From positions 99,833 to 163,832 of the forward strand of contig JBAZUR010000001.1 of NCBI GenBank assembly GCA_041661305.1: 64,000 nt of DNA, in the 5' to 3' direction. The notes beneath the pieces are model-generated. The model was not told the DNA's origin, ran no database searches, and saw only the letters and a list, made by a program, of their open reading frames with translations. Of the stretch, positions 8,410-25,524 are shown in pieces. The translations under genes and the position numbers were made by a program. The stretch's first letter is position 1, and the number at the start of each line of letters is the position of its first letter. Source of the DNA: Minisyncoccota bacterium (GTDB taxonomy: Bacteria; Patescibacteriota; Minisyncoccia; Phycocordibacterales; VMEP01).

Positions 8410-8883
8410 ATGAATAATAGTACGGCTTTTCGTTTTCCGATTGGGCTTGCTTACACGCTTTCGGTCGCCGTTGTTGAGGCGATACAGCACAAGCGTAGCT
8501 TTGTCGGCAAGAACGACCTCAAACGACTTCTTGAGTGGTACCAGAACGCAGCGTACCCCTGGAACGCCGCTTTGTTTTCGCGGGAAGGCACAACCGACGA
8601 AGGGCAGGCGCTCTATATTTTGATGAGGCATGTTCACTCGAAAAACGCAGTGAACGGTGTTCGTCAAAGGGTATCGCTCGTAGCTCGGGTTGCCGAGTTC
8701 ATGAGCAGATTTCCGAGGAAAACTTACTCGCATCACGACTTCCACTTCGTACTCGATTTCTTCAACGATTTGTCCATCGAAATAATGAAGTACAGGCGTG
8801 ATGTCGGACGGAGAAAGAGAAGGGCTCGGGCGGGGATGAAAATTGCGCACATCAAAAACAGGATGGCGCACGCGCGGATTTAG
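8410..8883 (+). CDS. Hypothetical basic protein in GC-rich foreign cassette A (157 aa)
   Basis: GGAGGG Shine-Dalgarno 5 nt before ATG; Arg/Lys-rich C-terminus; followed by terminator; GC far above flanks; ORFs open in several frames, so a structured RNA cannot be excluded. Confidence 0.4.
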   Translation: MNNSTAFRFPIGLAYTLSVAVVEAIQHKRSFVGKNDLKRLLEWYQNAAYPWNAALFSREGTTDEGQALYILMRHVHSKNAVNGVRQRVSLVARVAEFMSRFPRKTYSHHDFHFVLDFFNDLSIEIMKYRRDVGRRKRRARAGMKIAHIKNRMAHARI

Positions 8884-10004: not shown

Positions 10005-10427
10005 ATGAGCACGTCACTTGATGTAAAGTTCTTTGCAAAACTCGAGTGTCGTTTAGTGAAACCAGCTTGCTGTGTGGCTGTCGCTACAGTCATCAAGTCA
10101 CAGTATGGTATCCACGACGACGTGGATGTTGTCTTGTGTCGCTTCAGGCGGAGAGAAGTGGCCAAATCATCTTTTCAAGAAGTGTTTGAGGTAATCCGCT
10201 TTTTACCGGAGGATAAAGAGCTAGCTCTCAAATTTTTTCCGCACGGACCACCATTTTTGAATAGTGGTCCAGCATGGAGAGAAACAACCGGATGGCTTGC
10301 CCATGTAGTGAATTCGGACAGACCAATTCGAGAACTTGAATTTGTGCGGATTGAAGAGTATCCCCAAAGGACTCTACCACCGCATTTTAGGGCGAGAGTT
10401 TTCTACAACGCTCCTGCCTTGCGTTGA
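10005..10427 (+). CDS. Hypothetical protein, GC-rich cassette B (140 aa)
   Basis: AGGAGA SD 5 nt upstream; TTGTAA-N16-TAGAAT promoter-like element upstream; no family recognised. Confidence 0.45.
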   Translation: MSTSLDVKFFAKLECRLVKPACCVAVATVIKSQYGIHDDVDVVLCRFRRREVAKSSFQEVFEVIRFLPEDKELALKFFPHGPPFLNSGPAWRETTGWLAHVVNSDRPIRELEFVRIEEYPQRTLPPHFRARVFYNAPALR

Positions 10428-10430
10428 GGC

Positions 10431-10484
10431 CCCAATTTTGTTTGTCGATCTAATCGGCTGACGGAGTTGGGGCTTTTGTTTACA
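10431..10484 (+). terminator. Hairpin GCCCCAA...TTGGGGC followed by TTTTGTTT
   Basis: 7 bp GC-rich stem with long loop and U-run after cassette B. Confidence 0.4.
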
Positions 10485-10547
10485 GTTTTGATATCTTGTG
10501 GTAGCATTTTCCCGGGAATGTTCCCGTAAAACACAAGAAGGATAGTG

Positions 10548-11039
10548 ATGCAAAATCGCACAATAGTAACGGTGTCATCGACGCTGGTTTTCGATCTCGA
10601 GAAGAAGATCGAGGCGTATCTGAAGTCGCACGAGTGGCGTCGCCTGATTCACCCGCAGTTGGGTGATGATTTCCTTGTCACTCTCTGGAGCGAAGGAAAT
10701 GTCCTCGGTGGCCTCGGCAAAGACGGCTTCGTCGAAATCGAGCGCAACAAGATTCCGGGGAAAAAGAACATCACCCGGGCTGTCTCGACCAGGAAGGCGG
10801 TGGAAAACTGTCTGAATGGAACCATTCGCGTTCGCGCTCTCGAAACGCACGAGCTTGTCGAAGTGGTCCAGGGCTGGGCTCTGCTGTCGATTCCCGATGC
10901 GGTGAAGGCGAAGGTCATCAACCACCGCACTGGCGAAGCCAACAACAAGGCGAAGCAGTTGAAGTTGCGTTTCCAGGGCAAGTCCGGCATGGTGCCAGGG
11001 CACGCTTCGATGGAAATCACGGGCCAATCGGCAAGTTGA
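10548..11039 (+). CDS. Hypothetical protein, GC-rich cassette C (about 163 aa)
   Basis: AAGGA SD; GC about 57%; no family recognised. Confidence 0.45.
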   Translation: MQNRTIVTVSSTLVFDLEKKIEAYLKSHEWRRLIHPQLGDDFLVTLWSEGNVLGGLGKDGFVEIERNKIPGKKNITRAVSTRKAVENCLNGTIRVRALETHELVEVVQGWALLSIPDAVKAKVINHRTGEANNKAKQLKLRFQGKSGMVPGHASMEITGQSAS

Positions 11040-11143
11040 TCGGCACCTGTAGACGGCCAATCGGCCTAGTTCAACGGCTTGCGCACAGAAACGTTTTTAG
11101 TTAGTATGTGCCCTGCCGTTCAACCAGAAGAGGAGAAGCACCG

Positions 11144-11338
11144 ATGCATCAACAAGGTTCAGGTTCATCACGCAGTTTTGCAGCCCGACGCGCGAATTAC
11201 TTTGCGGGACAGGGCACGCAAGCACAGCCGATGTCGGGGGGAACAGGGGTCGCCGCAAATGATCCCAAGGCCACTTCCGCCGAAGAAGAAATCGTCGTCG
11301 ACCCGAAAGAGTCGCCGGCAAAGCACCAAAAGCAGTAA
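11144..11338 (+). CDS. Hypothetical small low-complexity protein, GC-rich cassette D (about 64 aa)
   Basis: GAGGAG SD 8 nt upstream of internal ATG; G/S/A/Q-rich, predicted disordered. Confidence 0.35.
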   Translation: MHQQGSGSSRSFAARRANYFAGQGTQAQPMSGGTGVAANDPKATSAEEEIVVDPKESPAKHQKQ

Positions 11339-11437
11339 GTCGGCCACGGCCGATTAACAGGTCCGCAAATCGTCAATCGACGGGGAGCGGGCCTTTTTCA
11401 TTTGGCGAGCTGAACTGATATAATCATTTTTACGAGA

Positions 11438-12508
11438 ATGAAAAATTCAAACGAAAATAAAGCAATGGAAAATGTTGCGTTCTATCGCAAATATCGTCCG
11501 CAGAAATTCGCGGACGTTTTAGGACAAGAGCACGTTGTTTCTGTTATTGAGAATTCGCTTTCGTCTGAAAGCATAGTTCATGCATATCTTTTTGCCGGTT
11601 CTCGCGGAACGGGCAAAACTTCAATCGCGCGCATTCTTGCTCGCGAACTCGGCACGTCGGACAATGACCTATACGAAATAGATGCCGCATCAAACCGTGG
11701 AATCGATGATGTCCGCGCATTGAAAGAATCGGTGCAGTCTCTACCTTTCGATTCAAAGTACAAAGTTTATATTATCGACGAGGTTCATATGCTCACCAAA
11801 GAAGCTTTTAACGCGCTTTTGAAAACTCTTGAAGAACCTCCAAAATATGTAATCTTCATTTTAGCGACGACTGAAATTGAAAAATTACCAGAGACGGTTG
11901 TGTCGCGTTGTCAGGTTTTCCAATTTAAAAAACCATCTCTTGAAACGTTGCGCGGGGTGATAGAAAAAATTGTTAAATCTGAAGGATACAAAATAGAGAA
12001 ATCAGCGGGGGAGCTTATCGCTCTTTTGGGCGAAGGTTCGTTCCGTGACACGCAGGGGATTTTGCAAAAAGTGATCGGACTTTCAAAAGGGAAGGAAATT
12101 ACTCGCACGGAGGTAGAGAACATCACCGGTGCGCCAGCGACAGAACTCGTGCGTGATTTTATTTTGGCGATTGCAACGCACGATTTGGAACGCGGGCTTT
12201 CTGCGGTGGGGAATACAGGAAAAGAGAATCGCGACATGAAGGTATATGCCAAACTCGTCTTGCGACAATTGCGCGCAGGGCTACTTTTGAAATATGCACC
12301 AGCGGGAGCAGAAAGTTTACTTTCAGATTTTGACGAGGACGAAAAGAAGTTTTTGAACACTCTCATTAAAGAAAATGGCAAGAATATCACCTCGGCGGTT
12401 TTAATAGAACTTCTCACCGCATACCAGCTTCTCGACTATTCTTACATCCCAGAACTTCCTTTAGAACTTGCTCTGATTAAGATTGTCGGGCAAAATGACC
12501 GAAGTTAG
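11438..12508 (+). CDS. dnaX: DNA polymerase III subunit gamma/tau (short form)
   Basis: AAA+ clamp-loader motifs GSRGTGKTS, DEVHML, SRC; 356 aa. Confidence 0.9.
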   Translation: MKNSNENKAMENVAFYRKYRPQKFADVLGQEHVVSVIENSLSSESIVHAYLFAGSRGTGKTSIARILARELGTSDNDLYEIDAASNRGIDDVRALKESVQSLPFDSKYKVYIIDEVHMLTKEAFNALLKTLEEPPKYVIFILATTEIEKLPETVVSRCQVFQFKKPSLETLRGVIEKIVKSEGYKIEKSAGELIALLGEGSFRDTQGILQKVIGLSKGKEITRTEVENITGAPATELVRDFILAIATHDLERGLSAVGNTGKENRDMKVYAKLVLRQLRAGLLLKYAPAGAESLLSDFDEDEKKFLNTLIKENGKNITSAVLIELLTAYQLLDYSYIPELPLELALIKIVGQNDRS

Positions 12509-12566
12509 TTAAGGGCTTTAGGCTTTGCTAATAAGCTAATCCCTAAAAGCTAACAGCTGTATTTAT

Positions 12567-12637
12567 TGGGGGATCGTCTAACGGTAGGACATGAGCCTTT
12601 GAAGCTCAGTATCTAGGTTCGATTCCTAGTCCCCCAG
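12567..12637 (+). tRNA. tRNA-Gln (anticodon UUG)
   Basis: Manual fold: 7 bp acceptor TGGGGGA/TCCCCCA, D-arm GTCT/GGAC, anticodon stem TGAGC/GCTCA with loop CTTTGAA, T-arm CTAGG-TTCGATT-CCTAG, discriminator G; no encoded CCA. Confidence 0.85.
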
Positions 12638-12639
12638 TT

Positions 12640-13398
12640 ATGAATGATTTTATAAAATCATCTGTTGATTGGTTTAAAGAGAAAACTAATAGTTCCCTGT
12701 ATTTTACTTATTTTGTTTTTGTTGTTGTTTGGAATTGGAAAACATTTTTCACTTTATTTTTTGAGGACGCCTCTCTTTTTGAGGCGCCTAGAGTTGAGTA
12801 TGTGTTAACCAATTTCGGGGTACACTTTTATGCTACTGAGGAGATTATTCTTTATCGGGTTTTAGAATTTTTTACAAACATCATATGGCATGCAGGAGTA
12901 CCAATATTACTTACTTTTTGGGCGGTAAAATATTTACCTAGATTTAATGCATGGGCACATGAAATTGAAGTGGAAAATTACTATAAAAGGAAGCGCGTTT
13001 ATGACGCCAAGAAGATTACGTATGAAGAAGAAAAGACTTTCTTTTTAAAAACAGAAGCGGAAGAAAAAATAAAACAGAAGACTGCAAAGGATTCCATTCA
13101 GAAATCTCAGACTCAAGAAGAAAAATGGGAGTCTGAATTTTTGAGAATTGACGAGGAAGATGTTCGTGCGATTCAGGTTGGGGTTAGTACTATTTATGGA
13201 AAATCAGGACACTTTACGACTGATCCATTAAAAATGGCAGCAATTTCACAATATGGTAAGTACATCTCGCACGATTTGTATGCACGCCTTGATTCTATGA
13301 ATCTCATAAAAAAGGATAATAACAACTCAAGTAAAATAGAATTCACCGAAAAGGGAAAGTATTTTGTTCGTAAATTACAAGAACAAAAGAGGGTTTAA
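12640..13398 (+). CDS. Hypothetical protein (N-terminal hydrophobic segment), first gene of tRNA-Gln-adjacent island
   Basis: ATG 3 nt after tRNA 3' end; 252 aa; no family recognised. Confidence 0.5.
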   Translation: MNDFIKSSVDWFKEKTNSSLYFTYFVFVVVWNWKTFFTLFFEDASLFEAPRVEYVLTNFGVHFYATEEIILYRVLEFFTNIIWHAGVPILLTFWAVKYLPRFNAWAHEIEVENYYKRKRVYDAKKITYEEEKTFFLKTEAEEKIKQKTAKDSIQKSQTQEEKWESEFLRIDEEDVRAIQVGVSTIYGKSGHFTTDPLKMAAISQYGKYISHDLYARLDSMNLIKKDNNNSSKIEFTEKGKYFVRKLQEQKRV

Positions 13399-13502
13399 AG
13401 GGTAATTTTTGGTTCGTCGTTTAAGTTTGAGATAATTTTCGACTTTGAAGGGTGGGGATAGTGTTTCGCATTCTGTTATATGGCAATTTGGAATAATACA
13501 CA

Positions 13503-13748
13503 ATGGAATATTATGATGTGTATATGCCAAGAGCAATTTATACAAAAGACCATAACGAAATTGTTGAACGCTTGAAAAAGGCGCGACTTAAGGCTGGTTT
13601 TGGGCAGGTTGAGGTTGCAGAAAAACTTGGTAAAACTCAGTCTTATGTTTCTAAGATAGAATCGGGACAAAGACGTTTTGATGTTTTGCAGTTGAAAGAA
13701 TTTGCAAAAATATACAAGAAAAAAATCGATTATTTTATTTCTGACTAA
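13503..13748 (+). CDS. XRE-family HTH controller (C) protein of the R-M module
   Basis: 81 aa with HTH AGFGQVEVAEKLGKTQSYVSKIESGQR; ends 3 nt before the putative restriction endonuclease gene. Confidence 0.7.
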   Translation: MEYYDVYMPRAIYTKDHNEIVERLKKARLKAGFGQVEVAEKLGKTQSYVSKIESGQRRFDVLQLKEFAKIYKKKIDYFISD

Positions 13749-13750
13749 AT

Positions 13751-14785
13751 ATGAAACTAGAACCAAAAAATGTAGTGGAGAGTTTACATAAAATTATGTG
13801 CTCTTCTACGAGCACCCAAGCTGACGCGAGAGTTGATAATAATGATTACTTTAAGAGACGCGTGCTTGGTTTTAAGGCAGAAATTGAATTTGAGAAACTT
13901 ATTGAAAACTATCAAAACATCCAATTTCTTGAGGGAGGACAACTTATATCAAAAGCTCTTTCTGGATCAGCTAGTGATTCAAATAAATTTATATACACTA
14001 CACTTTCTTATGATAAACCAGAGAAATACTTAGAAGTATATAAAGCTGTTTCAAATTGGTCAGATGTTGGCGAAATGTTTTATTTGGAAACAAATGACAA
14101 GTGGACTTATGGTGAACTTCAAGTTAAAGATACATCTACATCTCCAAAAAGAGCAGAAAAGATACTCAAACCTAGTTGTATTTTTTGGATCTATAATAAA
14201 AGTAAGGCAATTTTCGAAAAGCATATTGAGCAAGATTACGGCTGTGTTCTTAGCGGTTTTGAAAATTCAGGTAGAGAACCTTCCGTCTTTCCTTTGAGGA
14301 AACGTGAACAGTTTGATTATTTTTTGGAATATAACATCGATATACTTAAAAAAATATATGCTACAAGATATTTCCTCGATGTAGTATTAAGGAAAGCAAG
14401 TAAAAGAAAAATTATAGATTTTGATGGATTCCTAAAATACAAGCAAGGGCTATCACTCATCGAGATAAAAGAAAAAACACCAATTGTTGGTGAACGGGAT
14501 CCAGCCGATCAAATGCAGTGGAAATATGGCTGGGACTCGAGAAGAATTTTATGGTATCTATATTTTTCGAGTAAGATTAATATGCCAATTATTTATAATG
14601 TTCGACATATTAACAACAGGACTGAAAGAAAATTTATTCAGTGGGATTCTATAACCATTGATACTTTTCTTTCTGGATCTGATTGGTCAAAAGGTAGAGG
14701 AGGCGGAGGTGGGGAGGATACTATGCTTGCCCCATATCTTTTCTTTGAAAGAGTAGAAAAAACACTTGAAAAACTTAATCGGTAA
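13751..14785 (+). CDS. Putative Type II restriction endonuclease (PD-(D/E)XK-like)
   Basis: Position between C protein and convergent MTase; candidate catalytic motif FD...IEIKEK (D-X12-E-X-K); 344 aa. Confidence 0.5.
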   Translation: MKLEPKNVVESLHKIMCSSTSTQADARVDNNDYFKRRVLGFKAEIEFEKLIENYQNIQFLEGGQLISKALSGSASDSNKFIYTTLSYDKPEKYLEVYKAVSNWSDVGEMFYLETNDKWTYGELQVKDTSTSPKRAEKILKPSCIFWIYNKSKAIFEKHIEQDYGCVLSGFENSGREPSVFPLRKREQFDYFLEYNIDILKKIYATRYFLDVVLRKASKRKIIDFDGFLKYKQGLSLIEIKEKTPIVGERDPADQMQWKYGWDSRRILWYLYFSSKINMPIIYNVRHINNRTERKFIQWDSITIDTFLSGSDWSKGRGGGGGEDTMLAPYLFFERVEKTLEKLNR

Positions 14786-16433
14786 ATGCTAAGTTTTTAT
14801 TTTTAGCTAACACTTTACTGACACTAGCTCTTTTTATTTTCTCAATATCTATTCTACCTAATTTATTAGAAGATTTCTCCTCCAATTGATTCAGAGATTT
14901 TAAGACTTCTTTTGCTAATGCTGTAATTACAGGCACAGCAACACTATTCCCAAATTGTTTATATGCTTGCGCATCGCTGACCGGTATCTTGAATGAATCA
15001 GGAAACCCTTGTAATCGTGCAGCCTCTCTAGGAGTGAGTTTTCGAGGATTTTTACTTTTTTGCTCAATGAGAATTTCTGAACCATCTTTATAATATCGTG
15101 CAGATATAGTACTTGTGTATTCTGAATTTTCATTAAACATAGAATATCCGAAACCGTTTCCTTTTTCCCTATGTTCTTTTTTTCTCCTTTGGTGCCCCGC
15201 CCACAACTTGTCGGATATCGTATATTTAGGATCAACCTTTTTTTCAAGAATATTTCCAAGGCGAGTTTTTATGCCCGAAGGTTCAGGAAAAGAAAAATTA
15301 GTTTTTCCTAAAAATCCTATTATATATATACGTTCTCTGTTTTGGGGAACACCAAAGTCTTTTGCATTGAGAACTTTTGAATAGACTTCGTAACCAAGTT
15401 GCTCAAGGATATTATTTATTGTTTCAAAAGTTCTTCCATTATCATGACTCTTAAATCGTTTAACATTTTCTAGAAAAACTACTCTAGGTCTGTGGTATTC
15501 AAGAATTTTAGCGATATCAAAAAATAACGTACCTCTTGTATCTGCAAGACCAAGTTTTTTCCCAGCTTGAGAAAATGGCTGACAAGGGAAGCCAGCAAGT
15601 AATATGTCAAAAGGTGAGATTTCTTCTGGTTTAAACTTGGTAATATCTCCAAACGGAATTTCGGCAAAATTTGCACGATAAGTTTTTTGCGCTGGTTCAT
15701 CCCACTCCGAACTGAAAACTGATTTCGCCCCTATACTTTCAAAGCCTGTTCTTATACCACCTATTCCTGCAAATAGATCTATGACTCTAAGTAATTTTTG
15801 TTGAGAATAATTTTGTTCTTTTTCCGTTTTTTCATTAATGTTTCTTACTATTTGGACAACTACACCTCGGACCTCAACTTCTTTTCTATAAAAAGGGAGC
15901 ATATTTTGATTTCTCGGCTCAAGGCGGAATCCTTTTTTTTCACGATAAAGTTTTTTTAACGTGGCTTGGTTTTCATCAATTATGGCTACAACAGTTTGGC
16001 CATCTTCTGCTACGTCTTGCTTTCTTATGACCACGATGTCTCCCTCAAAAATTCCATCATCCATCATACTGTTTCCAATGACACGGAGAGCATAGTAATC
16101 TTTGGAATTCTTAATATTGGGGTTTACTATCGATATAGTGTCCTGCCTATCTTCTATGGCTTCAATTGGCTGACCGGCGGCAATGGTTCCTAAAATAGGA
16201 ATTTCAAAAATATATTTTATATCTTTTTTGGGTGAAATATTTCTAGATAAATTTTCAGATTTTGAGAGGTAGCCTTTTTCTTTTAAATAGTGAATATGTT
16301 CATGTATTGTGGATATCGCTTTAAGCTTTAGCTTTTTCCTTATTTCTTCAAGGGTTGGCGATATGCCATTTTCAGCGATGTATGTATTTATAAAATCGAA
16401 GACCTGTTTTTGTTTTTTTGTTAGGTTTGCCAT
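14775..16433 (-). CDS. Fusion protein: full-length LexA repressor (HTH + S24 peptidase) joined to a C5-cytosine DNA methyltransferase
   Basis: N-terminus aligns to LexA throughout (LTKKQKQVFDFI; GTIAAGQP Ala-Gly site; GNSM Ser; TLKKL Lys). C-terminus has m5C MTase motifs I FAGIGG, IV GFPCQPFS, VI ENV, VIII QNRERIYIIG, X GNSVAVPV. Single 552 aa ORF. Confidence 0.85.
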   Translation of the reverse strand: MANLTKKQKQVFDFINTYIAENGISPTLEEIRKKLKLKAISTIHEHIHYLKEKGYLSKSENLSRNISPKKDIKYIFEIPILGTIAAGQPIEAIEDRQDTISIVNPNIKNSKDYYALRVIGNSMMDDGIFEGDIVVIRKQDVAEDGQTVVAIIDENQATLKKLYREKKGFRLEPRNQNMLPFYRKEVEVRGVVVQIVRNINEKTEKEQNYSQQKLLRVIDLFAGIGGIRTGFESIGAKSVFSSEWDEPAQKTYRANFAEIPFGDITKFKPEEISPFDILLAGFPCQPFSQAGKKLGLADTRGTLFFDIAKILEYHRPRVVFLENVKRFKSHDNGRTFETINNILEQLGYEVYSKVLNAKDFGVPQNRERIYIIGFLGKTNFSFPEPSGIKTRLGNILEKKVDPKYTISDKLWAGHQRRKKEHREKGNGFGYSMFNENSEYTSTISARYYKDGSEILIEQKSKNPRKLTPREAARLQGFPDSFKIPVSDAQAYKQFGNSVAVPVITALAKEVLKSLNQLEEKSSNKLGRIDIEKIKRASVSKVLAKNKNLAFTD

Positions 16434-16514
16434 ATTGCTAAAAAAATTTATTTGCGATACAGTTTATATTATAACCGAAAATAAACCGAAACATAAGGGC
16501 GACTTATCCACAAG

Positions 16515-17414
16515 ATGAAAAAAGGGAGAAATGAAAAATGTCCATGCGGAAGTGGTTTGAAATATAAGAAATGTCATATGAACAAATCCCGAGAGATTGG
16601 AGTATTACGCAAAGCATACGACATGGGTAAAGACCATGATTTTTATACTCGTTTTTTATTTGGTCTTGGCAACATCAGAAGTTGTGCATACGGAAGAGAT
16701 AAGCAACTTGAGTATGATAAAAGTTTTAGTCCGGTTTTCCAAAATCTAGTTGAAATGAATATTGTAAAAAAGAAATGCGTCGCACTTATTTCTCAACATC
16801 GTGAGGCGGTTGAAACAGGCAAAGATGGGAAATACCATGGTAACCAAATTGACGTAAACGAACCTATTGAGGATGAACTAAATATTTTCTTTAAGGACTT
16901 TTTCATTCGTGGTGAAATGGCAATAGGAAGTCTTATTGCACACTCGCGATACGTGGGATCAAATATCGGGTTTCTTTTTACGGACGACGAAAAGAAATTT
17001 CGCAAGGGATTGGCAAAATTTGTGTTAAACGAGAACGATGAGCGTTTTAAGGGGTTAAATGCGTTCATGAAGCATAATCGAACAACATGGTACGAATCTT
17101 TCAATGACCTTCGCAATAAAATTGAACACGAAGGGTGGCATTTGCCGAATTTGCAGTACACACTTGATTCAAATAATAAAGTGCAGGTTCGGTTACCGAC
17201 ATCCCCCAGTCAAACTATTGAAGAAATTTTGGAGTCATATTGGCAAAGCATGAGTATGTTTTGTGAGGAAGTCATCGTTTTTCTTTTGAGCCTTAAGTTG
17301 AAAGAAGACATGATTATTGTATTTATTCCAGAAGAAAAACGAGATAAAAATTTACCTGTTCGATATATTGTCAGTCATAAAGATTTTCCTGGTGTTTTGT
17401 TGCAGTGCGGGTAA
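16515..17414 (+). CDS. SEC-C motif (CPCGSG..KCH zinc-binding) domain protein, function unknown
   Basis: N-terminal CPCGSGLKYKKCH; 299 aa. Confidence 0.5.
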   Translation: MKKGRNEKCPCGSGLKYKKCHMNKSREIGVLRKAYDMGKDHDFYTRFLFGLGNIRSCAYGRDKQLEYDKSFSPVFQNLVEMNIVKKKCVALISQHREAVETGKDGKYHGNQIDVNEPIEDELNIFFKDFFIRGEMAIGSLIAHSRYVGSNIGFLFTDDEKKFRKGLAKFVLNENDERFKGLNAFMKHNRTTWYESFNDLRNKIEHEGWHLPNLQYTLDSNNKVQVRLPTSPSQTIEEILESYWQSMSMFCEEVIVFLLSLKLKEDMIIVFIPEEKRDKNLPVRYIVSHKDFPGVLLQCG

Positions 17415-17425
17415 AGGGAGCATCC

Positions 17426-17462
17426 CCGCCGTCTCCTATTTTTTCCCACGGCGGGGATATTG
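17426..17462 (+). terminator. Hairpin ATCCCCGCCGT...ACGGCGGGGAT after the SEC-C gene
   Basis: 11 bp perfect stem. Confidence 0.5.
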
Positions 17463-17494
17463 CGCGCGAACGAGGGGTGAGATGAATGGCATTT

Positions 17495-17551
17495 TCAAAA
17501 TGATATAATACGAAAATGGAAAAAGTACCTTATACAAACTTAACCGTATTT
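17495..17551 (+). repeat. Direct repeat copy 1 (about 57 bp): extended -10 TGATATAAT plus truncated 16-codon ORF MEKVPYTNLTVFVLEH
   Basis: About 86% identical to 19656-19712. Confidence 0.8.
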
Positions 17552-17600
17552 GTTCTTGAGCACTAACCATTAGATGAGCTCTTAGAATATATTACTTAAC

Positions 17601-19100
17601 ATGTCTTTCAAGTTATCAAAAACCAATTTTCTAATATGTCTTGATTGTGCAAAAAACGCATGGCTTAAGATTCATAAACCAGACATATACAAGAAAAAAT
17701 CTCCTTCTTCTTTTGAGTTAAACATCATTGATACTGGTAATCAAATTGACGAGCTTGCTCGTGATCTTTTCCCAAACGGAACACTTGTTGATTCTCGTGA
17801 GGATACGGAACTTACAAAAAAACTCATGGCCGATAAAATACCTGTAATTTATCAGCCAGTATTTGCTACAGAAAAATTTATTATCGCCTCCGATATTTTT
17901 GTTTGGAATGCGGATACAAATCTATATGATCTGTATGAAGTAAAATCTTCAACTTCTTCAGAAGAAGAGGGTGGAAGAAAAACTGAAGATTATTTGATTG
18001 ATATGGCTTTTCAAAAAAATATTCTAAATGACTTAGGTATTCAGATTGGCACTCTTAATTTAATTCGACTCAACAAAACATATGTTCGAATGGGAAATAT
18101 TGAGTTAAAAGAACTATTTTTTATTGAAAATTTTACTGATCAAGTAAACGAAAAACTTGAGGATATAAAACAAAAAATGGATGGTGCTTACGAGCTACTA
18201 TCTAAAGAAAAAGAACCGCAAGGGCACTGTGATTGTATTTTGAAAGGGAAAAATTCGCACTGCACGACTTCGTGGTATTCAAACTCTGATCTTCCCGAGT
18301 ACTCTGTTCATTCAATCGCTCGAATTCACAAGAAAAAACTAATTGAATTAGTTGATAGTAATATATTTAGTATTCATGATGTTCCAGACGGTTTTGAGTT
18401 GTCAGATAATCAACGAAGACAGGTAAATACCGCACAGTCGGGTAGGGAGTATATTGATAAGAATGGAATCTCAGAGTTTTTGGAGACTATGAAATATCCT
18501 CTTGCTTTTCTTGATTACGAAACATATCCTTCTGCAATCCCAAAATATAATGGATACAGACCATATCAACAAATTCCATTCCAATTTTCACTTCATGTTA
18601 TTGACTCGCCAACCAGTGAATCTGTTCACTATGATTTTATTTATACAGATCAAGAGTGCCCAGATACATACTTTTCTGAAGCATTAAAAAAGCATCTTCC
18701 AAAAATAGGAAGTATTGTTGTGTGGAGCCAAAGATTTGAAAAAGGTATCAATGAACAAATTGGTGAACGTTTGCCTGACTATAAAAATTTTATGCAGGAA
18801 GTGAATAATCGTGTAGTTGACCTGATGATTCCTTTCTTTGGCAAGACAACAATGTATGACCACCCAAAATTCAAAGGTAGTGCTTCAATAAAATATGTTT
18901 TGCCTGCTCTTGTTCCCACTCTGTCTTATAAAGATATGCACATTCAAGAAGGAGGTACGGCAGCCGACACATGGAATCGTATTGTGTCTGGAGAATATTC
19001 TGAAAATGACAAAAATATGAAAATACAAGCACTCAAGGATTATTGTCATCTCGATACTTTGGCGATGGTTGAAATTTGGAGAGTCTTAAAATCAGTTTAG
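17601..19100 (+). CDS. PD-(D/E)XK (Cas4/RecB-like) nuclease domain fused to a DUF2779 RNase H-like domain
   Basis: N-terminus CLDC and D..LYEVK motif; C-terminus LAFLDYETY...PYQQIPFQFSLH typical of DUF2779; 499 aa. Confidence 0.55.
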   Translation: MSFKLSKTNFLICLDCAKNAWLKIHKPDIYKKKSPSSFELNIIDTGNQIDELARDLFPNGTLVDSREDTELTKKLMADKIPVIYQPVFATEKFIIASDIFVWNADTNLYDLYEVKSSTSSEEEGGRKTEDYLIDMAFQKNILNDLGIQIGTLNLIRLNKTYVRMGNIELKELFFIENFTDQVNEKLEDIKQKMDGAYELLSKEKEPQGHCDCILKGKNSHCTTSWYSNSDLPEYSVHSIARIHKKKLIELVDSNIFSIHDVPDGFELSDNQRRQVNTAQSGREYIDKNGISEFLETMKYPLAFLDYETYPSAIPKYNGYRPYQQIPFQFSLHVIDSPTSESVHYDFIYTDQECPDTYFSEALKKHLPKIGSIVVWSQRFEKGINEQIGERLPDYKNFMQEVNNRVVDLMIPFFGKTTMYDHPKFKGSASIKYVLPALVPTLSYKDMHIQEGGTAADTWNRIVSGEYSENDKNMKIQALKDYCHLDTLAMVEIWRVLKSV

Positions 19101-19621
19101 AAAAGGGGGCAAATGATATTTTTAAAATGGTAGACTTTACGAAACCGAAGCATTCAGCAATTCATATGCCACGAAAAACAATAAAAAATGCCGGCGACCA
19201 AGATTTTAAGCCGGACTTAACTCCGAAGGAAATGCTTGAGCTCGGTGTATTTGGCGGATTATATTTTTCTGATAAACCTAAAGAGTTTCCAAGGAGTTGG
19301 TTTGTGAAAGCAAAATTGTCGCCTGATGGAAAACGCCACAAAGAACTGAACTTTTTCGGCATAAATGCGAGCCAACCGCTTTCTGTGTGGAAAACTAAAG
19401 GGTGGATTCATCCACAAGATCCGCGTGGATGGTTTCAGTGGTACTGCAGATATTACATTGGGCGTCGGACTGTTGATGATGAGCGACAAATAAAAAGGTG
19501 GAGAGCCATACGCAGGCACATTGTGCAAATTAAAAACAATTGCCGAACCGGAGATATTTTTTGCCGACCTCGGCAAAGACAAGCATTGCTTCACTGGGCT
19601 TACGACTCGCGGAAAATGTAA
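19076..19621 (+). CDS. Hypothetical basic protein (true start possibly ATG at 19127)
   Basis: 181 aa ORF overlapping the end of the nuclease gene; Trp/Arg-rich C-terminus. Confidence 0.4.
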   Translation: MESLKISLEKGANDIFKMVDFTKPKHSAIHMPRKTIKNAGDQDFKPDLTPKEMLELGVFGGLYFSDKPKEFPRSWFVKAKLSPDGKRHKELNFFGINASQPLSVWKTKGWIHPQDPRGWFQWYCRYYIGRRTVDDERQIKRWRAIRRHIVQIKNNCRTGDIFCRPRQRQALLHWAYDSRKM

Positions 19622-19655
19622 TAAAGATTCTCCCGAGATAGATTTTTTGCGGGCA

Positions 19656-19712
19656 CCAAAATGATATAATACAAAAATGGAAAAGGTACCATACACAAAT
19701 TTAGCCATCTTT
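19656..19712 (+). repeat. Direct repeat copy 2: TGATATAAT promoter plus start of an intact small membrane-protein gene
   Basis: Matches 17495-17551. Confidence 0.8.
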
Positions 19713-19829
19713 GCCCTTTTCTTTGGTGTTGCTCTTCTAGAAGCAATTCAAAGAAGTAATTGGATTGAAGCAGGCCTTTTTCTCGCCCTAGGTCTTTTAT
19801 TCCTCCGCGCAGATTTTTTAAAGAAATAA
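19677..19829 (+). CDS. Small hydrophobic membrane protein (50 aa), intact copy of the ORF truncated at 17516
   Basis: MEKVPYTNLAIFALFFGVALL...; stop overlaps next start (TAATG). Confidence 0.5.
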   Translation: MEKVPYTNLAIFALFFGVALLEAIQRSNWIEAGLFLALGLLFLRADFLKK

Positions 19830-20425
19830 TGAATATGAAAAATTTTTATACAATCATCCCAATTTTAATCGCTTTGTCTGTCGGGGTTTATTTCTCGCTT
19901 ACAGTTGATGAAAAGAAAGTGACAAATAATAACAACACGTATCCAAATTATTCAAACGAAGTGCTTGGTATCGAATTTGCCTATCGCGCAGGACCAGACG
20001 GATATGTGATACAAGAACACTTTGTATCGAAGTCAGCTGAAGATTTGCTTGGCACGATTGTACTCATGAGGACTGAAGACGCCGAGAGACCAATGCCTGT
20101 CGGTGGTGAGGGTCCAGCAACTATCACTATTCAAGTGCTTAAGAATTCAAAGAAACAACAGTCAGAGGCGTGGGCAAATGCGAATAACATATACAGCAAT
20201 ATCAATCTTAAAACAGGCGAGGTGAGTGAGTATGTTCTCGGTGGAGCAAACGCAATTAGATATTCTGCTACTGGTCTTTATGAATCAGACAATGTGGTGG
20301 TGGCTCACGGCGAGAACGTATATGTGCTCAGCGGAAACTATATGGACGCTGAATCAGATTTGCGAAAAGATTTTACTCCACTTCTTGAATCAGTCAGATT
20401 CATCCCGCAACCAAGACAAAATTAA
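19829..20425 (+). CDS. Hypothetical membrane-anchored protein
   Basis: N-terminal TM; 198 aa. Confidence 0.5.
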   Translation: MNMKNFYTIIPILIALSVGVYFSLTVDEKKVTNNNNTYPNYSNEVLGIEFAYRAGPDGYVIQEHFVSKSAEDLLGTIVLMRTEDAERPMPVGGEGPATITIQVLKNSKKQQSEAWANANNIYSNINLKTGEVSEYVLGGANAIRYSATGLYESDNVVVAHGENVYVLSGNYMDAESDLRKDFTPLLESVRFIPQPRQN

Positions 20426-20585
20426 GGATGAAAAGACAATGTGCAAAAAATGCACACTGTGAATCGAAGGCAAAACATATGGTGGCGTTAGTAACACAGA
20501 TGCTGAAGTAGTTGTTATAAAGAGACGAGAGGGGCTTGTGGAACGAGCCGTTAATATTTTAATCACAACTTGATATAATCTTTTT

Positions 20586-20903
20586 ATGAAAAAACCATTC
20601 CTATACGCATTCTCCGCCGCACTATATATTGTTTCTCTTATTTCCGTTATATATCTTGCCTCTCGTTTTTTGAAAGATGTGCCTGAAACTATAATTATTC
20701 CGATGACTATGCTGAGTATTTTTGTTTTGTCAGCTGCGGTTATGGGGTTCTTGTTTTTATCTGAGCCGTTATCTCTACTAGTTGAAGGCAAGAAGAGAGA
20801 AGCTATTATCTACTTTGCTAAGATTGTCGGATTTTTTGCTTGTTTCGTGATTATTTTTGCAACGATTCTTATCACCGGCCAAACTTTTCTCCCGTCATTT
20901 TAG
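20586..20903 (+). CDS. Small integral membrane protein
   Basis: Three predicted TM helices; GATATAAT -10 upstream. Confidence 0.5.
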   Translation: MKKPFLYAFSAALYIVSLISVIYLASRFLKDVPETIIIPMTMLSIFVLSAAVMGFLFLSEPLSLLVEGKKREAIIYFAKIVGFFACFVIIFATILITGQTFLPSF

Positions 20904-20927
20904 CTTCATATAAATCAACTTATTTTC

Positions 20928-21443
20928 GTGCGATATTTTCTTAAAAATTTTAGGAAGGTCTACAATGCGGACAATCCATTCGGGGCTTTTCCTTTGTGGG
21001 AATATTACCCAAAAACAGGCACACATGTAGGCACAGATTTTAAAATTGCAGTTGGTACGCCAATATTTGCTCCGGCGAACGGTGAGATGTTTAAAGTTTG
21101 GTTTGATAAATATAAAGGAAATGTTGGTGTGTATATATTTGATTATCGAAAAACTACTTGGGGCCTTGAGCTGTGTCATCTAAAAGAATTGCCCGCTGTG
21201 GGAAAATTCAAAGAAGGAGAGATAATTGCTTATTCCGGCAACACCGGCGCATCCACAACCGGCGCTCATCTTCATGCGGTGCTTCATCGTGGTGCCGAGG
21301 TCGCAGAGAATTATCAAGAATTACAAAGTCGGGAAGATTTTCTGCGACTAGAAAAAGAGGGAGCAATTGTTGATTGTTTTCAGTGGTTTTGCTCAAAAAT
21401 GAAAAGAAAAACAAAACGAGAGAAGAAAAGCAAAGCTCTTTGA
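20928..21443 (+). CDS. M23 family (LytM-like) metallopeptidase
   Basis: HVGTDF...GNTGASTTGAHLH motifs. Confidence 0.7.
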   Translation: MRYFLKNFRKVYNADNPFGAFPLWEYYPKTGTHVGTDFKIAVGTPIFAPANGEMFKVWFDKYKGNVGVYIFDYRKTTWGLELCHLKELPAVGKFKEGEIIAYSGNTGASTTGAHLHAVLHRGAEVAENYQELQSREDFLRLEKEGAIVDCFQWFCSKMKRKTKREKKSKAL

Positions 21444-21476
21444 ACCCAGTAAAAAAGGTGCTACAATCGGACGACT

Positions 21477-21593
21477 ATGCCACAAGTAAAAGGATTTCAT
21501 ATAAATAGGGGAAAGTCTCGCTCTAAAAAGACAAAGAAGCGCCTTGCTATAAAGAAGGAAATGCTCGCAAGTCGCAAAACGAAAAAGAAGTAG
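21477..21593 (+). CDS. Very small Lys-rich basic peptide (38 aa), unannotated micro-gene
   Basis: Extended -10 TGCTACAAT upstream; terminator AAGCTCATT..AATGAGCTTTTT downstream. Confidence 0.4.
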   Translation: MPQVKGFHINRGKSRSKKTKKRLAIKKEMLASRKTKKK

Positions 21594-21625
21594 TTTTAGT
21601 TTTAGAAGCCAATACTCGACTCGTC

Positions 21626-21657
21626 AAAAAGCTCATTTCAATCGGAATGAGCTTTTT
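21626..21657 (+). terminator. Intrinsic terminator AAGCTCATT-loop-AATGAGCTT + T5
   Basis: 9 bp stem followed by TTTTT. Confidence 0.6.
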
Positions 21658-21769
21658 GAGCGTTGGTGCAGAGGGAATCTTTGTCTAAATGAAAGAAAAT
21701 TGTATATCGCGTTGTACTAACAGTAGAGATATCGCGAATCTCTACTTAATAAAAAATAATAAAAATAAC

Positions 21770-22147
21770 ATGGAAAAAAGAACATTAAAATTAGGCGCAT
21801 TGGCACTCTTGCTTGGGGCTATGGGGGCACTTACTGGTACAGCTTTTGCATACCAAGGAGATCCGTCAGTTAGAGGCCCAAATTATTCAGCGGAACGTCA
21901 CGCTTCAATGGAGAAGGCGTTTGAGAGCAAAGATTATACAGCTTGGAAAAATCTTATGCCCGGAAGAGGCAGAGTAATGCAAGTTGTTAATAAAGATAAC
22001 TTTGCAAAATTTGCCGAAGCGCACGAATTGGCAGAACAAGGTAAATTTACTGAAGCACAGAAGATTCGACAAGAGATGGGATTAGGACTCCATGATGGTT
22101 TGGGGAAGAAAGTTGGCGGAATGGGGAGGGGTATGATGGGCAGATAA
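21770..22147 (+). CDS. Secreted hypothetical protein (signal peptide; start possibly earlier at 21689)
   Basis: MEKRTLKLGALALLLGAMGALTGTAFA signal peptide. Confidence 0.5.
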   Translation: MEKRTLKLGALALLLGAMGALTGTAFAYQGDPSVRGPNYSAERHASMEKAFESKDYTAWKNLMPGRGRVMQVVNKDNFAKFAEAHELAEQGKFTEAQKIRQEMGLGLHDGLGKKVGGMGRGMMGR

Positions 22148-22162
22148 ACGGTAATGTTTTTA

Positions 22163-22200
22163 CACAGCAAACTCCAGCCACAAAACTGGAGTTTGCTGTG
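22163..22200 (+). promoter_or_regulatory. Perfect 15 bp inverted repeat with 8 nt loop, 20 nt upstream of ECF sigma start
   Basis: CACAGCAAACTCCAG-CCACAAAA-CTGGAGTTTGCTGTG; no U-tract after it. Confidence 0.6.
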
Positions 22201-22220
22201 TAATTGGTATACTCAAACTA

Positions 22221-22768
22221 TGAACGAGGAAAGGAATAAAAAACTATCTGACGAGGAAATTATTGGAAAAGTTCGTTCTAGCGATCAGGAGCTTTACGCC
22301 ATAATCGTTGAACGATATCAGAGCAAGCTCTTTCGTTATGCCAATAATTTAATTAAAGATGAGCACAAATCAGCTGATGTAGTTCAGGAGTCTTTCATTA
22401 AAGCTTTCGTGAATTTGAATAGTTTTGATACAAAAAAGAAATTTTCTAGTTGGATATATCGAATTGTTCACAACGAAGCAATGAATGTTCTAAAGAAAAA
22501 CAAGAAAGAGATATCAATTCCAGATGATATGGATTTTCAGAGTGACGAAGATATTGAAGATGATTTTATAAAAAAAGAGGTTGTCGCAAAGGTCGAGAAA
22601 TGTTTAGGAGAGATGCCAATGCTTTATTCTGAGCCATTGATATTACGCTTCATTGAGGAAAAATCTTATGAGGAAATCAGTGATATATTAAGAATACCAA
22701 TGGGGACGGTCGCAACGCGCATAAGTAGGGCAAAAATATTAATGAAACATCTATGTCAAAAGAACTAA
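22221..22768 (+). CDS. ECF-type RNA polymerase sigma-70 factor
   Basis: Region 2 (ELYAIIVERYQSKLFRYA) and region 4 (SYEEISDILRIPMGTVATRISRA). Confidence 0.8.
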
Positions 22769-23268
22769 AAAATATTAAAGAGTCTGTCATGGGCAAAATT
22801 CATCAGGGCAAGGTGAAGATGCGCCCGAGGATATATTTTGTCATGGGTTCAGTCCTCACTTTTGTGGGACTGGTTTCTTCTGTATTGATTTCTGTTTTTC
22901 TTATTGGATTGATGCGTTTTTCTTTGAGGGCTCACGGACCAATGGGGGAATATCGAGCAGAACAATTACTGACGAGTTTTCCATGGTGGTCGCCAGCTGT
23001 CGCAATTTTGGGACTAGTGGTTGGAATATGGCTACTTCGCCAATATGATTTTTCTTATAAGTTGGACTACAAAATTATAGTTGTTGTTTTTGTGGCTGTT
23101 GTGTTTTCGGCGGGGTGGGTTCTTGATATGACCGGATTGAATGAGGCTTTAACTAGAAGAGGGCCAATGCAAGGAATGATGAGGCAATACCTGGAAGAAA
23201 ATAATATTCAACCAGAGTTCGGTGCCGGCTGGAGAGGTCCGCGAGGTTTAAGGACGATTATTGAATAA
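22753..23268 (+). CDS. Putative anti-sigma factor / membrane protein co-transcribed with the ECF sigma
   Basis: Overlaps the sigma gene 3' end; multiple TM helices. Confidence 0.5.
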   Translation: MSKELKNIKESVMGKIHQGKVKMRPRIYFVMGSVLTFVGLVSSVLISVFLIGLMRFSLRAHGPMGEYRAEQLLTSFPWWSPAVAILGLVVGIWLLRQYDFSYKLDYKIIVVVFVAVVFSAGWVLDMTGLNEALTRRGPMQGMMRQYLEENNIQPEFGAGWRGPRGLRTIIE

Positions 23269-23308
23269 TTCTTGTTTAATTCGGCTGGCGAATTTATAAT
23301 AAAAGAAT

Positions 23309-23857
23309 ATGAATATCTATAGAAACGTAATTATTTTTATTTTAATTCTCGGAGTTATTGGTGCCGGATATTATTTTATTAACAATAAAAGTAGCGAAGA
23401 ATATATTCCACAAGAGATTGTGAATGAGGTTGTGAACGAAACTGAGGAACTTGTAGGTTCTCGAGATGGGACTCATTTTGGTTTTATCCACGGCGTTGAT
23501 GTGGAAAAAGGAGAAATTAAATTTGATAAAACTGTTTGGCTTTCTGGTGTCGAAGGAGAGGAGGCGGCAATTAAAGCAGGCCACTGTACAGAAGAAACAC
23601 GTATTGATTGTCTTCCAAATGATTATTTTATTTCAAACTCTTTGGAAAAAGATGAGGTTCTTTCGGTTGATCCGAGTGTGGTTCTTTTTATGAAGACTTG
23701 GGAAGTTGGAAATTTAGGAATACTAGACCGTGAAATTGGATTTTCTGATTTTGCCAAGCTCGTTTCTGACAAGAGTGCTCAGTGGGATAAGGTGCCGTAT
23801 AATGTCACAATTGAAAACGGAAAAGTGATACACATAGAAGAAGTTTATGTTCCATAG
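23309..23857 (+). CDS. Hypothetical membrane-anchored protein
   Basis: N-terminal TM; 182 aa. Confidence 0.45.
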   Translation: MNIYRNVIIFILILGVIGAGYYFINNKSSEEYIPQEIVNEVVNETEELVGSRDGTHFGFIHGVDVEKGEIKFDKTVWLSGVEGEEAAIKAGHCTEETRIDCLPNDYFISNSLEKDEVLSVDPSVVLFMKTWEVGNLGILDREIGFSDFAKLVSDKSAQWDKVPYNVTIENGKVIHIEEVYVP

Positions 23858-23874
23858 ATTTAAAAAAATGATTA

Positions 23875-24804: not shown

Positions 24805-24810
24805 GAGTAC

Positions 24811-25395: not shown

Positions 25396-25524
25396 ATGTT
25401 TAGAACACTACATGAACTGCTAATTTTTTGCTAACTGATTATTTGAAAAAAATGTGGACGATAGTCGCTTATGCACTGAAAATATACCAATATTTTCAGG
25501 ATTTTGATATAATTAGCATTAAGT

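Follow-up and report, generated by a model that had tools for sequence, protein, structure and literature searches.

Organization of the locus

We analysed a stretch of 64,000 nucleotides (nt) from a Minisyncoccota bacterium (GenBank assembly GCA_041661305.1, contig JBAZUR010000001.1, positions 99,833 to 163,832), which is called the window here, and all coordinates count from its first letter. The subject is the region downstream of dnaX and the adjacent tRNA-Gln gene, which carries genes of a Type II restriction-modification (R-M) system whose DNA methyltransferase (MTase) is fused to LexA. An initial annotation had described 12567 to 19830 as a defence-type accessory island inserted at the 3' end of the tRNA gene. 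The genes that it listed are all present, namely a helix-turn-helix (HTH) controller (C) protein, open reading frame (ORF) ORF344, the LexA-MTase fusion, a SEC-C-motif protein, a DUF2779 protein and ORF181. The features of the locus are as follows.

11438 to 12508, plus strand: dnaX (clamp-loader subunit; Pfam DNA_pol3_delta2/AAA), conserved left flank and putative left recombination anchor
12509 to 12566: spacer between dnaX and the tRNA gene, not alignable with the close relative L179 (see below)
12567 to 12637, plus strand: tRNA-Gln(UUG) (ARAGORN; Rfam 63.3 bits), no CCA encoded
12640 to 13398, plus strand: ORF252, 252 amino acids (aa)
13399 to 13502, plus strand: promoter of the C gene and putative control region
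13503 to 13748, plus strand: C (controller) protein, HTH_3 (Pfam 2.2e-13; PADLOC Control_protein and HTH matches)
13751 to 14785, plus strand: ORF344, 344 aa, predicted Type II restriction endonuclease (REase)
14775 to 16433, minus strand: LexA-MTase fusion (Pfam LexA_DNA_bind, Peptidase_S24 and C5 DNA_methylase)
16434 to 16521, minus strand: LexA-MTase promoter with a putative operator, where the R-M cassette ends on the right
16515 to 17414, plus strand: SEC-C-motif protein, 299 aa, in variable slot 2
17422 to 17458, plus strand: GC-rich inverted repeat with a 10-bp stem after the stop codon of the SEC-C gene; possible terminator, descriptive only
17496 to 17557, plus strand: first copy of direct repeat D1; right edge of the variable region and probable DUF2779 promoter
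17601 to 19100, plus strand: DUF2779 nuclease family (Pfam PF11074, 128.6 bits; gathering score 23.3)
19127 to 19621 (listed ORF from TTG 19076), plus strand: ORF181, conserved Parcubacteria protein
19657 to 19718, plus strand: second copy of D1, with the promoter and 5' part of the intact ORF50 gene
19677 to 20425, plus strand: ORF50 (small, hydrophobic) and ORF198, with overlapping stop and start codons
20586 to 20903, plus strand: ORF105, hydrophobic protein; right anchor

The compositional signal of an island is present. GC content is 0.348 in 12640-17497 and 0.337 in 17498-19100, against a mean of 0.401 (standard deviation 0.014, minimum 0.371) in windows of the same size elsewhere in the 64 kb. 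The stretch 12640-19100 has the lowest GC of the window, and the four genes of lowest GC all lie inside it. GC returns to normal at ORF181 (0.42), and thus the low-GC block ends at about 19100. Nucleotide homology with L179 is back at 17498, indicating that the fast-changing part covers about 12509-17497 and does not reach 19830, where the right boundary had been drawn. ORF181, which had been counted as a basic hypothetical island gene, belongs to a family with at least 8000 homologues of about 150 aa, and the best 120 of these are 69-92% identical to it. This high conservation in Parcubacteria means that it is not island cargo. dnaX was correctly placed on the left; the right flank, said to hold ordinary membrane-protein genes, also encodes an M23 peptidase, an extracytoplasmic function (ECF) sigma factor, a Na/Ca exchanger, the GTPase EngB, an HD protein and an amino-acid kinase.

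A close relative has the same scaffold and different occupants

A search of genome and metagenome collections for close relatives with dnaX gave best matches of 56-58% identity. A much closer relative, the 55-kb contig L179 (ENA ERZ27253369), was recovered only via ORF181 homologues. The flanks of the two loci are 93.9% (10279-11433) and 95.4% (20502-29676) identical at the nucleotide level, and the flank proteins are 95-100% identical except for two at 88-89%. The gene order in L179 is dnaX, tRNA-Gln, a homologue of ORF252, an Mrr gene, an REase gene, LexA-MTase on the minus strand, PDC-M36A, DUF2779, ORF181, ORF50, ORF198 and ORF105. Its equivalent region has a GC content of 0.327, compared with 0.40-0.48 in its own flanks.

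Inside this common order, conserved and replaced segments alternate. The L179 homologue of ORF252 has 250 aa, is 77-78% identical and also starts 2 nt past the tRNA gene; the first 25 residues are identical, and correspondingly the first 75 nt of ORF252 are near-identical after the divergent tRNA gene. There is no nucleotide homology to L179 in 13399-15857 (slot 1), where L179 has an Mrr-type Type IV REase (PADLOC mREase_IV, 1e-61) and a 277-aa Type II REase (2e-12), and none in 16521-17497 (slot 2), where it has the 477-aa PADLOC candidate PDC-M36A (1.3e-53). Between the slots lies the LexA-MTase gene, which encodes 525 aa in L179 and is 52% identical in aa overall; its LexA-coding part is 70.6% identical in nucleotides, while the MTase domain of slot 1, the catalytic and target-recognition part, is non-homologous to that of the window. 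Homology is back at 17498 in both L179 and L181, and 17498-20425 is 90.7% identical to L179 at the nucleotide level (aa identities: DUF2779 94%, ORF181 88%, ORF50 94%, ORF198 90%, ORF105 91%). The block is therefore a mosaic with at least four internal breakpoints, and a 95%-identical relative shows the same scaffold and slots with different occupants. In this comparison the empty site that would go with simple insertion was not seen, and L179 has swapped cassettes in the same scaffold.

The R-M cassette recurs in unrelated contexts

The R-M genes of the window have relatives elsewhere. The segment 13708-16522 is 85% identical at the nucleotide level to L175 (GCA_023245995.1), in which the REase is 86% and the MTase 89% identical in aa. 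The neighbours of the L175 cassette are unrelated (DUF554, a lipase and a SET-domain protein). The homology to L175 ends at 16522 and that to L179 at 16520, which defines the right breakpoint of the cassette. At the nucleotide level, L171-173 match the C gene and its upstream region (13476-13735) with 80% identity and the LexA half plus promoter (15737-16491) with 76%. The L171-173 cassettes have a Bsp6I-type REase and an MTase domain different from that of the window. The C protein is 77.5% identical in aa to the C protein of the L171 Bsp6I-type cassette. Thus, cassettes related at 70-89% are found in unrelated contexts. In a comparison with plasmids, the MTase catalytic domain was the only part that matched (66-70% nt).

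The promoter of the C gene contains a repeated TGGAATA(A/T)TA motif up to the start codon, and the block conserved with L171-173 is TATATGGCAATTTGGAATATTACACAATGGAATATTAT. ORF344 has a start coupled to the C gene and shares its last 11 nt with the convergent MTase gene. ORF344 has no match in Pfam, NCBIfam, PHROG or PADLOC, and its family comprises 95 homologous clusters, none with a Pfam domain. Members of this family adjoin a C5 MTase in all four contexts inspected (the window, a second genome of the candidate phyla radiation (CPR), Halobacteriovorax and Porticoccaceae). The residues D223, D225, E238 and K240 are invariant, giving a D...D...ExK pattern. The AlphaFold2 model of ORF344 has a predicted local distance difference test score (pLDDT) of 90.9, and in Foldseek its C-terminal ~120 residues matched the PD-(D/E)XK nucleases D212, Hjc and NhoI (E = 1e-3 to 1e-2). 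Together, these observations lead to the prediction that ORF344 is a Type II REase of an undescribed PD-(D/E)XK family. The cassette offers an uncharacterised REase family with a testable predicted target, CCNGG, which follows from the MTase described below. CCNGG is rarer than expected in the window (59 observed, 94 expected).

A C5 MTase of Halobacteriovorax sp. (L174, 2739-6032) lies between an MvaI/BcnI-type REase and a protein of the ORF344 family. A single methylation specificity may serve both of these unrelated nucleases, and this arrangement fits ORF344 as an alternative REase for CC(N/W/S)GG-type sites. In L171 (41-285 and 6868-7113), L172 and L173, which represent a different Parcubacteria lineage, a 6.9-kb segment holds a ThsB-TIR gene, an 8xMP gene and the LexA-MTase/Bsp6I/C cassette. 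The segment in L171 has inverted repeats of ~245 bp at its ends (98.8% identical) and adjoins a large serine recombinase and tRNA-Glu. Two assemblies link the right end of this type of segment to different flanks (ATP synthase genes or murE); either the segment is invertible or mobile, or the assemblies are ambiguous.

The MTase is fused to a complete LexA

The LexA-MTase protein has 552 aa. Residues 1-199 are a full-length LexA, which matches the NCBIfam equivalog TIGR00498 with 170.8 bits (cutoff 110.95) and can be aligned over its whole length to the solved LexA structures of E. coli and T. maritima, with the AAG, GxSM and Lys positions kept. The cleavage site Ala86-Gly87 and the residues Ser122 and Lys160 are invariant in 27 diverse fusions. 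The fused LexA is complete and apparently cleavable.

Residues ~213-515 form an SsoII-type C5 MTase (Pfam DNA_methylase, 1.3e-109; TIGR00675, 354 bits), which aligns over its full length with M.HhaI and has the FPCQ and ENV motifs. This part is 63% identical over 306 aa, target-recognition region included, to the 379-aa Dcm of the Klebsiella plasmid pKPN2, which has the same size as M.SsoII and M.Ecl18kI; we take pKPN2 to encode the Kpn2kI system. M.SsoII and M.Ecl18kI methylate CCNGG and regulate their own systems via an N-terminal region of 71 residues (PMC3978073, PMC2760811, PMC2577355). CCNGG is therefore the predicted target of the window MTase, and LexA stands in place of the short regulatory region of SsoII-type enzymes.

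The fusion is common in CPR bacteria. The three-domain architecture was found in ~70 of the best 120 database matches, all from CPR-type sources, and some of these proteins are annotated simply as 'transcriptional repressor LexA'. The fusion gene is convergent with the REase gene in every context examined, and fusions are paired with at least three unrelated REase families. We found no description of a LexA-methyltransferase fusion in the literature searched, which is not proof of novelty. No relatives of the LexA domain were found in viral contigs. By eye, the LexA half of the window protein resembles those of ~525-aa fusions, whose partners, where checked, are Bsp6I-type REases, and the MTase half resembles the P0002-P0005 group, in which P0004 and P0005 are partnered with MvaI/BcnI-type REases. 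As the two halves resemble different groups of fusions, the junction between the domains has the look of a recombination breakpoint.

In four lineages the fusion genes are preceded by a TTTCGG-N5-TTTCGG direct repeat (16475-16491 in the window), with TATAAT after it, and by a DnaA-box-like TTATCCACA (16504-16512). The exact direct repeat occurs once in the window and is a candidate operator. The DnaA-box consensus TTATCCACA has five exact occurrences in the 64 kb (1270, 16504, 26537, 31443 and 45418), against 0.54 expected, and none of 100 shuffles reached five. In the four lineages the copy at 16504-16512 is conserved, either as TTATCCACA or as TTATCCCCA, some 70 nt ahead of the LexA-MTase genes.

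These features suggest a model of regulation, which we infer from the conserved residues and the architecture. The LexA moiety would repress the MTase promoter through the TTTCGG-N5-TTTCGG repeat and would be removed by RecA-stimulated self-cleavage, so that DNA breaks would raise methylase expression. We tentatively propose, as a possibility somewhat short of an even chance, that Type II R-M systems of CPR bacteria are commonly built on an MTase joined to a complete, self-cleaving LexA, which would sense DNA damage and whose LexA half would serve as an anchor for swapping. If this is true, breaks caused by self-restriction or infection would lead to RecA filaments, the DNA-binding domain would be cut off, the MTase gene would be de-repressed and methylation would increase. 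Such a loop would be a feedback against autoimmunity, and control of methylase expression by LexA cleavage would directly link the SOS response to R-M. In so small a genome, the fusion might even be the only LexA of the cell.

The tRNA-Gln gene lies within the exchanged DNA

The initial annotation correctly noted that the first gene hugs tRNA-Gln; the ATG of ORF252 at 12640 is the third base past the discriminator G (12637), with 2 nt in between. Comparison with L179 shows that the left breakpoint lies before the tRNA gene. DnaX is 98% identical in aa in L179, with nucleotide identity of ~0.87-0.99 up to 12478, whereas 12479-12578 has an identity of 0.43 with 51 gap columns. The spacer between dnaX and the tRNA gene is 57 nt in the window and 9 nt in L179, and alignment is impossible. 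The tRNA-Gln genes of the window and L179 share only 68% identity, and the differences in the acceptor, anticodon and T stems are compensatory. L084 and L090, although distant, have tRNA-Gln genes that are 85-86% identical to that of the window, and for L168 the value is 81%. By these identities, the tRNA-Gln allele is at odds with the phylogeny of the flanks. Since both spacer and tRNA differ from L179, the tRNA gene falls within the exchanged DNA and is not a fixed attachment point.

We looked for signs of integration. No repeat of the tRNA 3' end with three or fewer mismatches was found in the 64-kb window, including the far boundary, where the initial annotation had suggested looking for one. 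With gaps allowed, the best match to the tRNA end (17185-17209) does no better than an average shuffled control. Inverted repeats at the ends of the block are just 21-31 nt long at 70-83% identity, which is usual for AT-rich DNA. No integrase or recombinase domain was found in the scanned ORFs of the block and flanks, as had been stated, nor in the L179 and L168 loci. The gaps between the genes of the block are 2, 104, 2, 81, 186 and 26 nt (~400 nt in total), and a decayed integrase gene has no room in gaps of 2-186 nt. No empty site was found; L179 and contigs of the same species are all filled, indicating replacement and not absence.

The start of ORF252 is 2 nt past tRNA-Gln in both alleles (2552-2554 in L179). 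ORF252 and the tRNA thus probably share a transcript, in which 3' processing of the tRNA would leave ORF252 with almost no leader. By eye, several genes of the island lack a Shine-Dalgarno sequence.

More distant relatives and a third version of the locus

The closest matches to dnaX come from metagenome-assembled genomes of Nomurabacteria, Parcubacteria and Paceibacterota. In most of them dnaX is followed by tRNA-Gln, which is on the opposite strand in L001 and L083; some short contigs of relatives have no tRNA-Gln after dnaX. We compared ten loci with enough sequence on both sides, taking the ORFs within 8 kb of the tRNA. Upstream of tRNA-Gln, 52 of 68 ORFs had a same-side homologue in another relative, compared with 10 of 88 downstream. 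None of the window genes from ORF252 through ORF198 recurs downstream of tRNA-Gln in these ten relatives. ORF105 is the first gene on the right that is also near tRNA-Gln in distant relatives. The distance from the tRNA to ORF105 is 0.82 kb in L087 (59% aa identity), 1.47 kb in L084 (44%) and 7.95 kb in the window. The 8 kb past the tRNA in the relatives hold ordinary metabolic genes together with genes for three N6/N4 MTase proteins, a Zeta toxin and a BsaWI-type REase, and by eye a RelB/YafQ-type toxin-antitoxin pair directly follows the tRNA in L084.

A third version of the locus was found in L168-170, which is more distant (47% aa identity in a fragment of DnaX, 74% in TypA and 54-56% in the ECF sigma and anti-sigma factors). 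Here, defence genes likewise lie between tRNA-Gln and the sigma operon. The contents are a Hhe/PDC-S37-like helicase gene overlapping the DUF2779 gene, a MazG-like gene, an MvaI/BcnI-type REase gene convergent with LexA-MTase (74% aa identity) and a homologue of ORF181 (75%). The DUF2779 gene of L168 is 86% identical to that of the window in both aa and nt, and the match is bounded by the ends of the gene. This identity exceeds that of the tRNA and of every core gene compared, and suggests that lineages have exchanged DUF2779.

Probable turnover of the locus by recombination

The proposed hot spot lies between dnaX/tRNA-Gln and the conserved ECF-sigma operon in one clade of Parcubacteria, which belong to the CPR. 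We consider it likely that 12509 to ~19100 is the local version of a long-lived, integrase-free defence hot spot that is turned over by recombination. Its scaffold consists of tRNA-Gln, ORF252, the LexA-coding half with its promoter, the duplicated D1 promoter and DUF2779, between which cassettes are replaced. In the window, slot 1 (13399-15857) is occupied by the specificity genes of the Type II R-M system (C, the REase and the catalytic and target-recognition part of the MTase) and slot 2 (16521-17497) by the SEC-C-motif protein. Turnover would proceed via homologous recombination with DNA of diverged relatives, with crossovers in the conserved anchors, and the cassette would act as an anti-phage R-M system. 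The recombination mechanism is deduced from the breakpoints together with the lack of a recombinase. The accessory and defence-type character that the initial annotation gave to the region holds up; GC is atypical, the genes are absent at this position in about ten distant Parcubacteria, the core is a Type II R-M system, and two other versions have defence genes in their slots.

Integration at the tRNA would explain several of the same features. In a classical island, an integrase would have inserted the block at the 3' end of tRNA-Gln, and the integrase and the distal repeat would since have been lost. The start of the block 2 nt past the tRNA, its atypical GC and defence-type cargo, the large serine recombinase and tRNA-Glu beside the related LexA-MTase cassette in L171, and the weak gapped likeness to the last 23 nt of the tRNA at 17185-17209 all fit this explanation. 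However, neither the window nor the L179 alleles nor L168 has an integrase, the ~400 nt of intergenic DNA leave no space for a pseudogene, and no attachment repeat was detected, the likeness at 17185-17209 being that of an average shuffle. Furthermore, both halves of the tRNA differ from L179 with compensatory changes, which does not fit exchange at a 3'-end attachment site, L179 is not empty, and the block is a mosaic and not one unit. Insertion at the tRNA 3' end, as initially proposed, is thus improbable. Adjacency to a tRNA gene alone is not proof of integrase-mediated insertion, and here the tRNA gene itself belongs to the exchanged DNA.

The region might instead not be accessory but an ancestral, vertically inherited, fast-evolving AT-rich cluster, with loss of synteny through ordinary rearrangement. 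L179, and in part L168, has ORF252, LexA-MTase, DUF2779 and ORF181 at the corresponding position, the ORF181 family is conserved and core-like, and the other relatives are so distant (dnaX ~50-58% identical) that rearrangement is expected. On the other hand, segments of 2.5 kb and 1 kb without homology, with different enzymes, lie between flanks that are 94-95% identical; an R-M cassette of 85% identity occurs in a different context; and the identities of the tRNA and DUF2779 are out of step with those of the genes in the flanks. We regard this explanation as unlikely. A chimeric join at the tRNA was also considered, as the window comes from a metagenome contig (JGI 3300037810, Ga0376277_0000126, 476 kb). 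Contig L081 covers the left junction (dnaX, tRNA, ORF252, C and REase), and L163 and L164 cover the right part (SEC-C, DUF2779, ORF181 and ORF50). They come from two samples other than that of the window, their proteins are 100% identical except for an alternative start codon of ORF181, and both junctions are reproduced. An assembly artefact is thus hardly credible.

Several points weigh against turnover of a defence hot spot by recombination. Two alleles within a species-level group and one distant version are available, with no empty site or intermediate, so that the rate and the mechanism of turnover, crossovers at the anchors included, are putative. ORF252 and the SEC-C protein have no known function, leaving R-M as the only defence supported by sequence evidence. 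REase activity, CCNGG specificity, LexA cleavage and operator binding are predictions. The depletion of CCNGG is modest, and GATC and GCWGC are depleted equally or more. The GC dip of about 5 points is not dramatic. DUF2779 is at the locus in all three versions, and a homologue is quasi-essential in JCVI-syn3.0 (PMC13621843); its role may be housekeeping and its low GC coincidental.

As an island, the hot spot is ordinary, and its unusual part is the LexA-MTase in a Type II R-M cassette. The locus is a well-resolved example of even ultra-small CPR genomes keeping a dedicated, rapidly reshuffled defence locus.

Comparison with known systems

Genomic islands associated with tRNAs use an integrase to enter a tRNA gene at its 3' end. 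The locus resembles them in its position directly after a tRNA gene, its atypical composition, its accessory and defence cargo and its absence in more distant relatives. Unlike them, it lacks an integrase and a repeat of the tRNA end, its closest relative does not have an empty site, the tRNA gene is exchanged as a whole along with the spacer before it, and the block is internally a mosaic. Parallels are also found among chromosomal defence hot spots. In E. coli, the 'immigration control region' carries hsd/mcr/mrr. The locus shares with such hot spots a fixed position, conserved flanks, different restriction or defence genes in each slot, a Type IV Mrr in one allele and the lack of dedicated mobility genes. 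In contrast, it belongs to a CPR bacterium whose genome is probably well under 1 Mb, it is compact (~5-6.5 kb), and its putative anchors include a tRNA gene and the LexA half of a methylase gene. Defence islands and hot spots bounded by core genes have been described (Makarova et al. 2013, PMC3632139). Type II R-M is the only recognisable defence system of the window; PADLOC returned MTase and HTH matches for the window proteins and no complete system for SEC-C, ORF252 or DUF2779. The other alleles hold several defence genes (Mrr, Type II R-M, PDC-M36A and a Hhe-like helicase).

In the SsoII, Ecl18kI and Kpn2kI systems, the N-terminal DNA-binding region of the C5 MTase regulates the system (PMC3978073, PMC2760811, PMC3695355). 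The window MTase likewise has an N-terminal DNA-binding module, a 63% identical domain and a conserved promoter repeat. Unlike in those systems, the ~71-residue region has given way to a LexA of 199 residues, the REase and MTase genes are convergent instead of divergent, the REase gene is unrelated to that of R.Ecl18kI, and a separate C protein is also present. Type II R-M systems controlled by C proteins have been reviewed (PMC3874152). As in these, a small HTH gene lies directly upstream of the REase gene and is translationally coupled to it, and the promoter has a repeated motif; however, this motif is not a canonical C-box, and control appears to be double, with C for the C-REase operon and the LexA fusion for the MTase gene. 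Genomic islands of Patescibacteria/CPR, including a Type I R-M island, have been predicted by composition (PMC12455944). Those islands are, like this one, horizontally acquired, compositionally atypical and R-M-bearing in ultra-small bacteria. A search of that report by term gave no mention of tRNAs, integrases or LexA; here alleles and breakpoints are resolved against a close relative.

Other genes of the block and minor observations

By eye, ORF252 has a hydrophobic N-terminus with two membrane helices, a charged and probably coiled stretch and a C-terminal domain. It has no match in Pfam, NCBIfam or phage genomes, and its family, small and very diverse in sequence, comprises 136 clusters at 50% identity. 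In the SEC-C protein, the Pfam SEC-C motif at residues 5-23 is all that is recognised. Its PADLOC matches to E2 models rest on this 20-residue zinc motif, and the single-sequence AlphaFold2 model (pLDDT 44) is unusable. The protein is a candidate defence gene by position only, as the slot holds PDC-M36A in L179.

Published domain assignments place DUF2779 among the RNase H-like 3'-5' exonucleases and give the family an N-terminal Cas4-like PD-(D/E)XK domain (PMC3985635, PMC13621843). The window protein has, by eye, an EVK motif and a Cys cluster. The gene has a GC content of 0.34 and yet is conserved in the window and L179. No relatives of DUF2779 were found in viral contigs, and sequence searches of the Protein Data Bank with ORF181, ORF252 and DUF2779 gave nothing useful.

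D1 is a 62-nt direct repeat (17496-17557 and 19657-19718) whose copies are 84% identical, and both copies are present in L179. It consists of the extended -10 promoter TGATATAAT, 6 nt, ATG and the first 14 codons of the 50-codon ORF50 gene (19677). The upstream copy, which precedes DUF2779, is truncated by a stop codon. TATAAT lies 6 nt before the ATG in both copies (17505-17518 and 19666-19679), implying leaderless mRNAs. D1 could have marked a separate 2.1-kb insertion containing DUF2779 and ORF181; this reading was dropped because both copies and both genes are in L179 and the ORF181 family is conserved.

The true start of ORF181 is probably the ATG at 19127. Homologues of ORF181 are in other contexts in L178 and L168. 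ORF50 and ORF198 are lineage-specific but conserved in L179. In L178 (2246-7640), the ORF181 homologue (86% aa identity by tblastn; 92% in the family listing) is in a different neighbourhood, and the homologues of ORF50 and ORF198 are separated by genes for an NYN-domain protein and a P-type ATPase. Thus, the region right of the island is plastic as well.

A promoter scan gave 33 promoter-like sites compared with 27.9 in shuffled sequences, which is no excess. Terminator-like sites were in excess (12 compared with 4.7), yet they did not help in defining operons. The surroundings (91 nt) of the hairpin at 17422-17458 have a fold energy no better than that of shuffled sequences (z = -0.07). An Rfam scan of the window found two tRNAs only. 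Over the whole window, the observed/expected ratio is 0.49 for GATC, 0.47 for GCWGC, 0.50 for GCNGC and 0.51 for CCWGG. This roughly two-fold depletion suggests that, elsewhere in the genome or in the lineage, R-M systems act or once acted on these sites. In the conserved left flank, the ORFs 8410-8883 and 10545-11039 have unusually high GC contents of 0.51 and 0.56 (0.62 and 0.71 at third codon positions) in a genome of ~40% GC. Rfam has nothing at either position, and the ORF at 10545-11039 is 88% identical in aa in L179.

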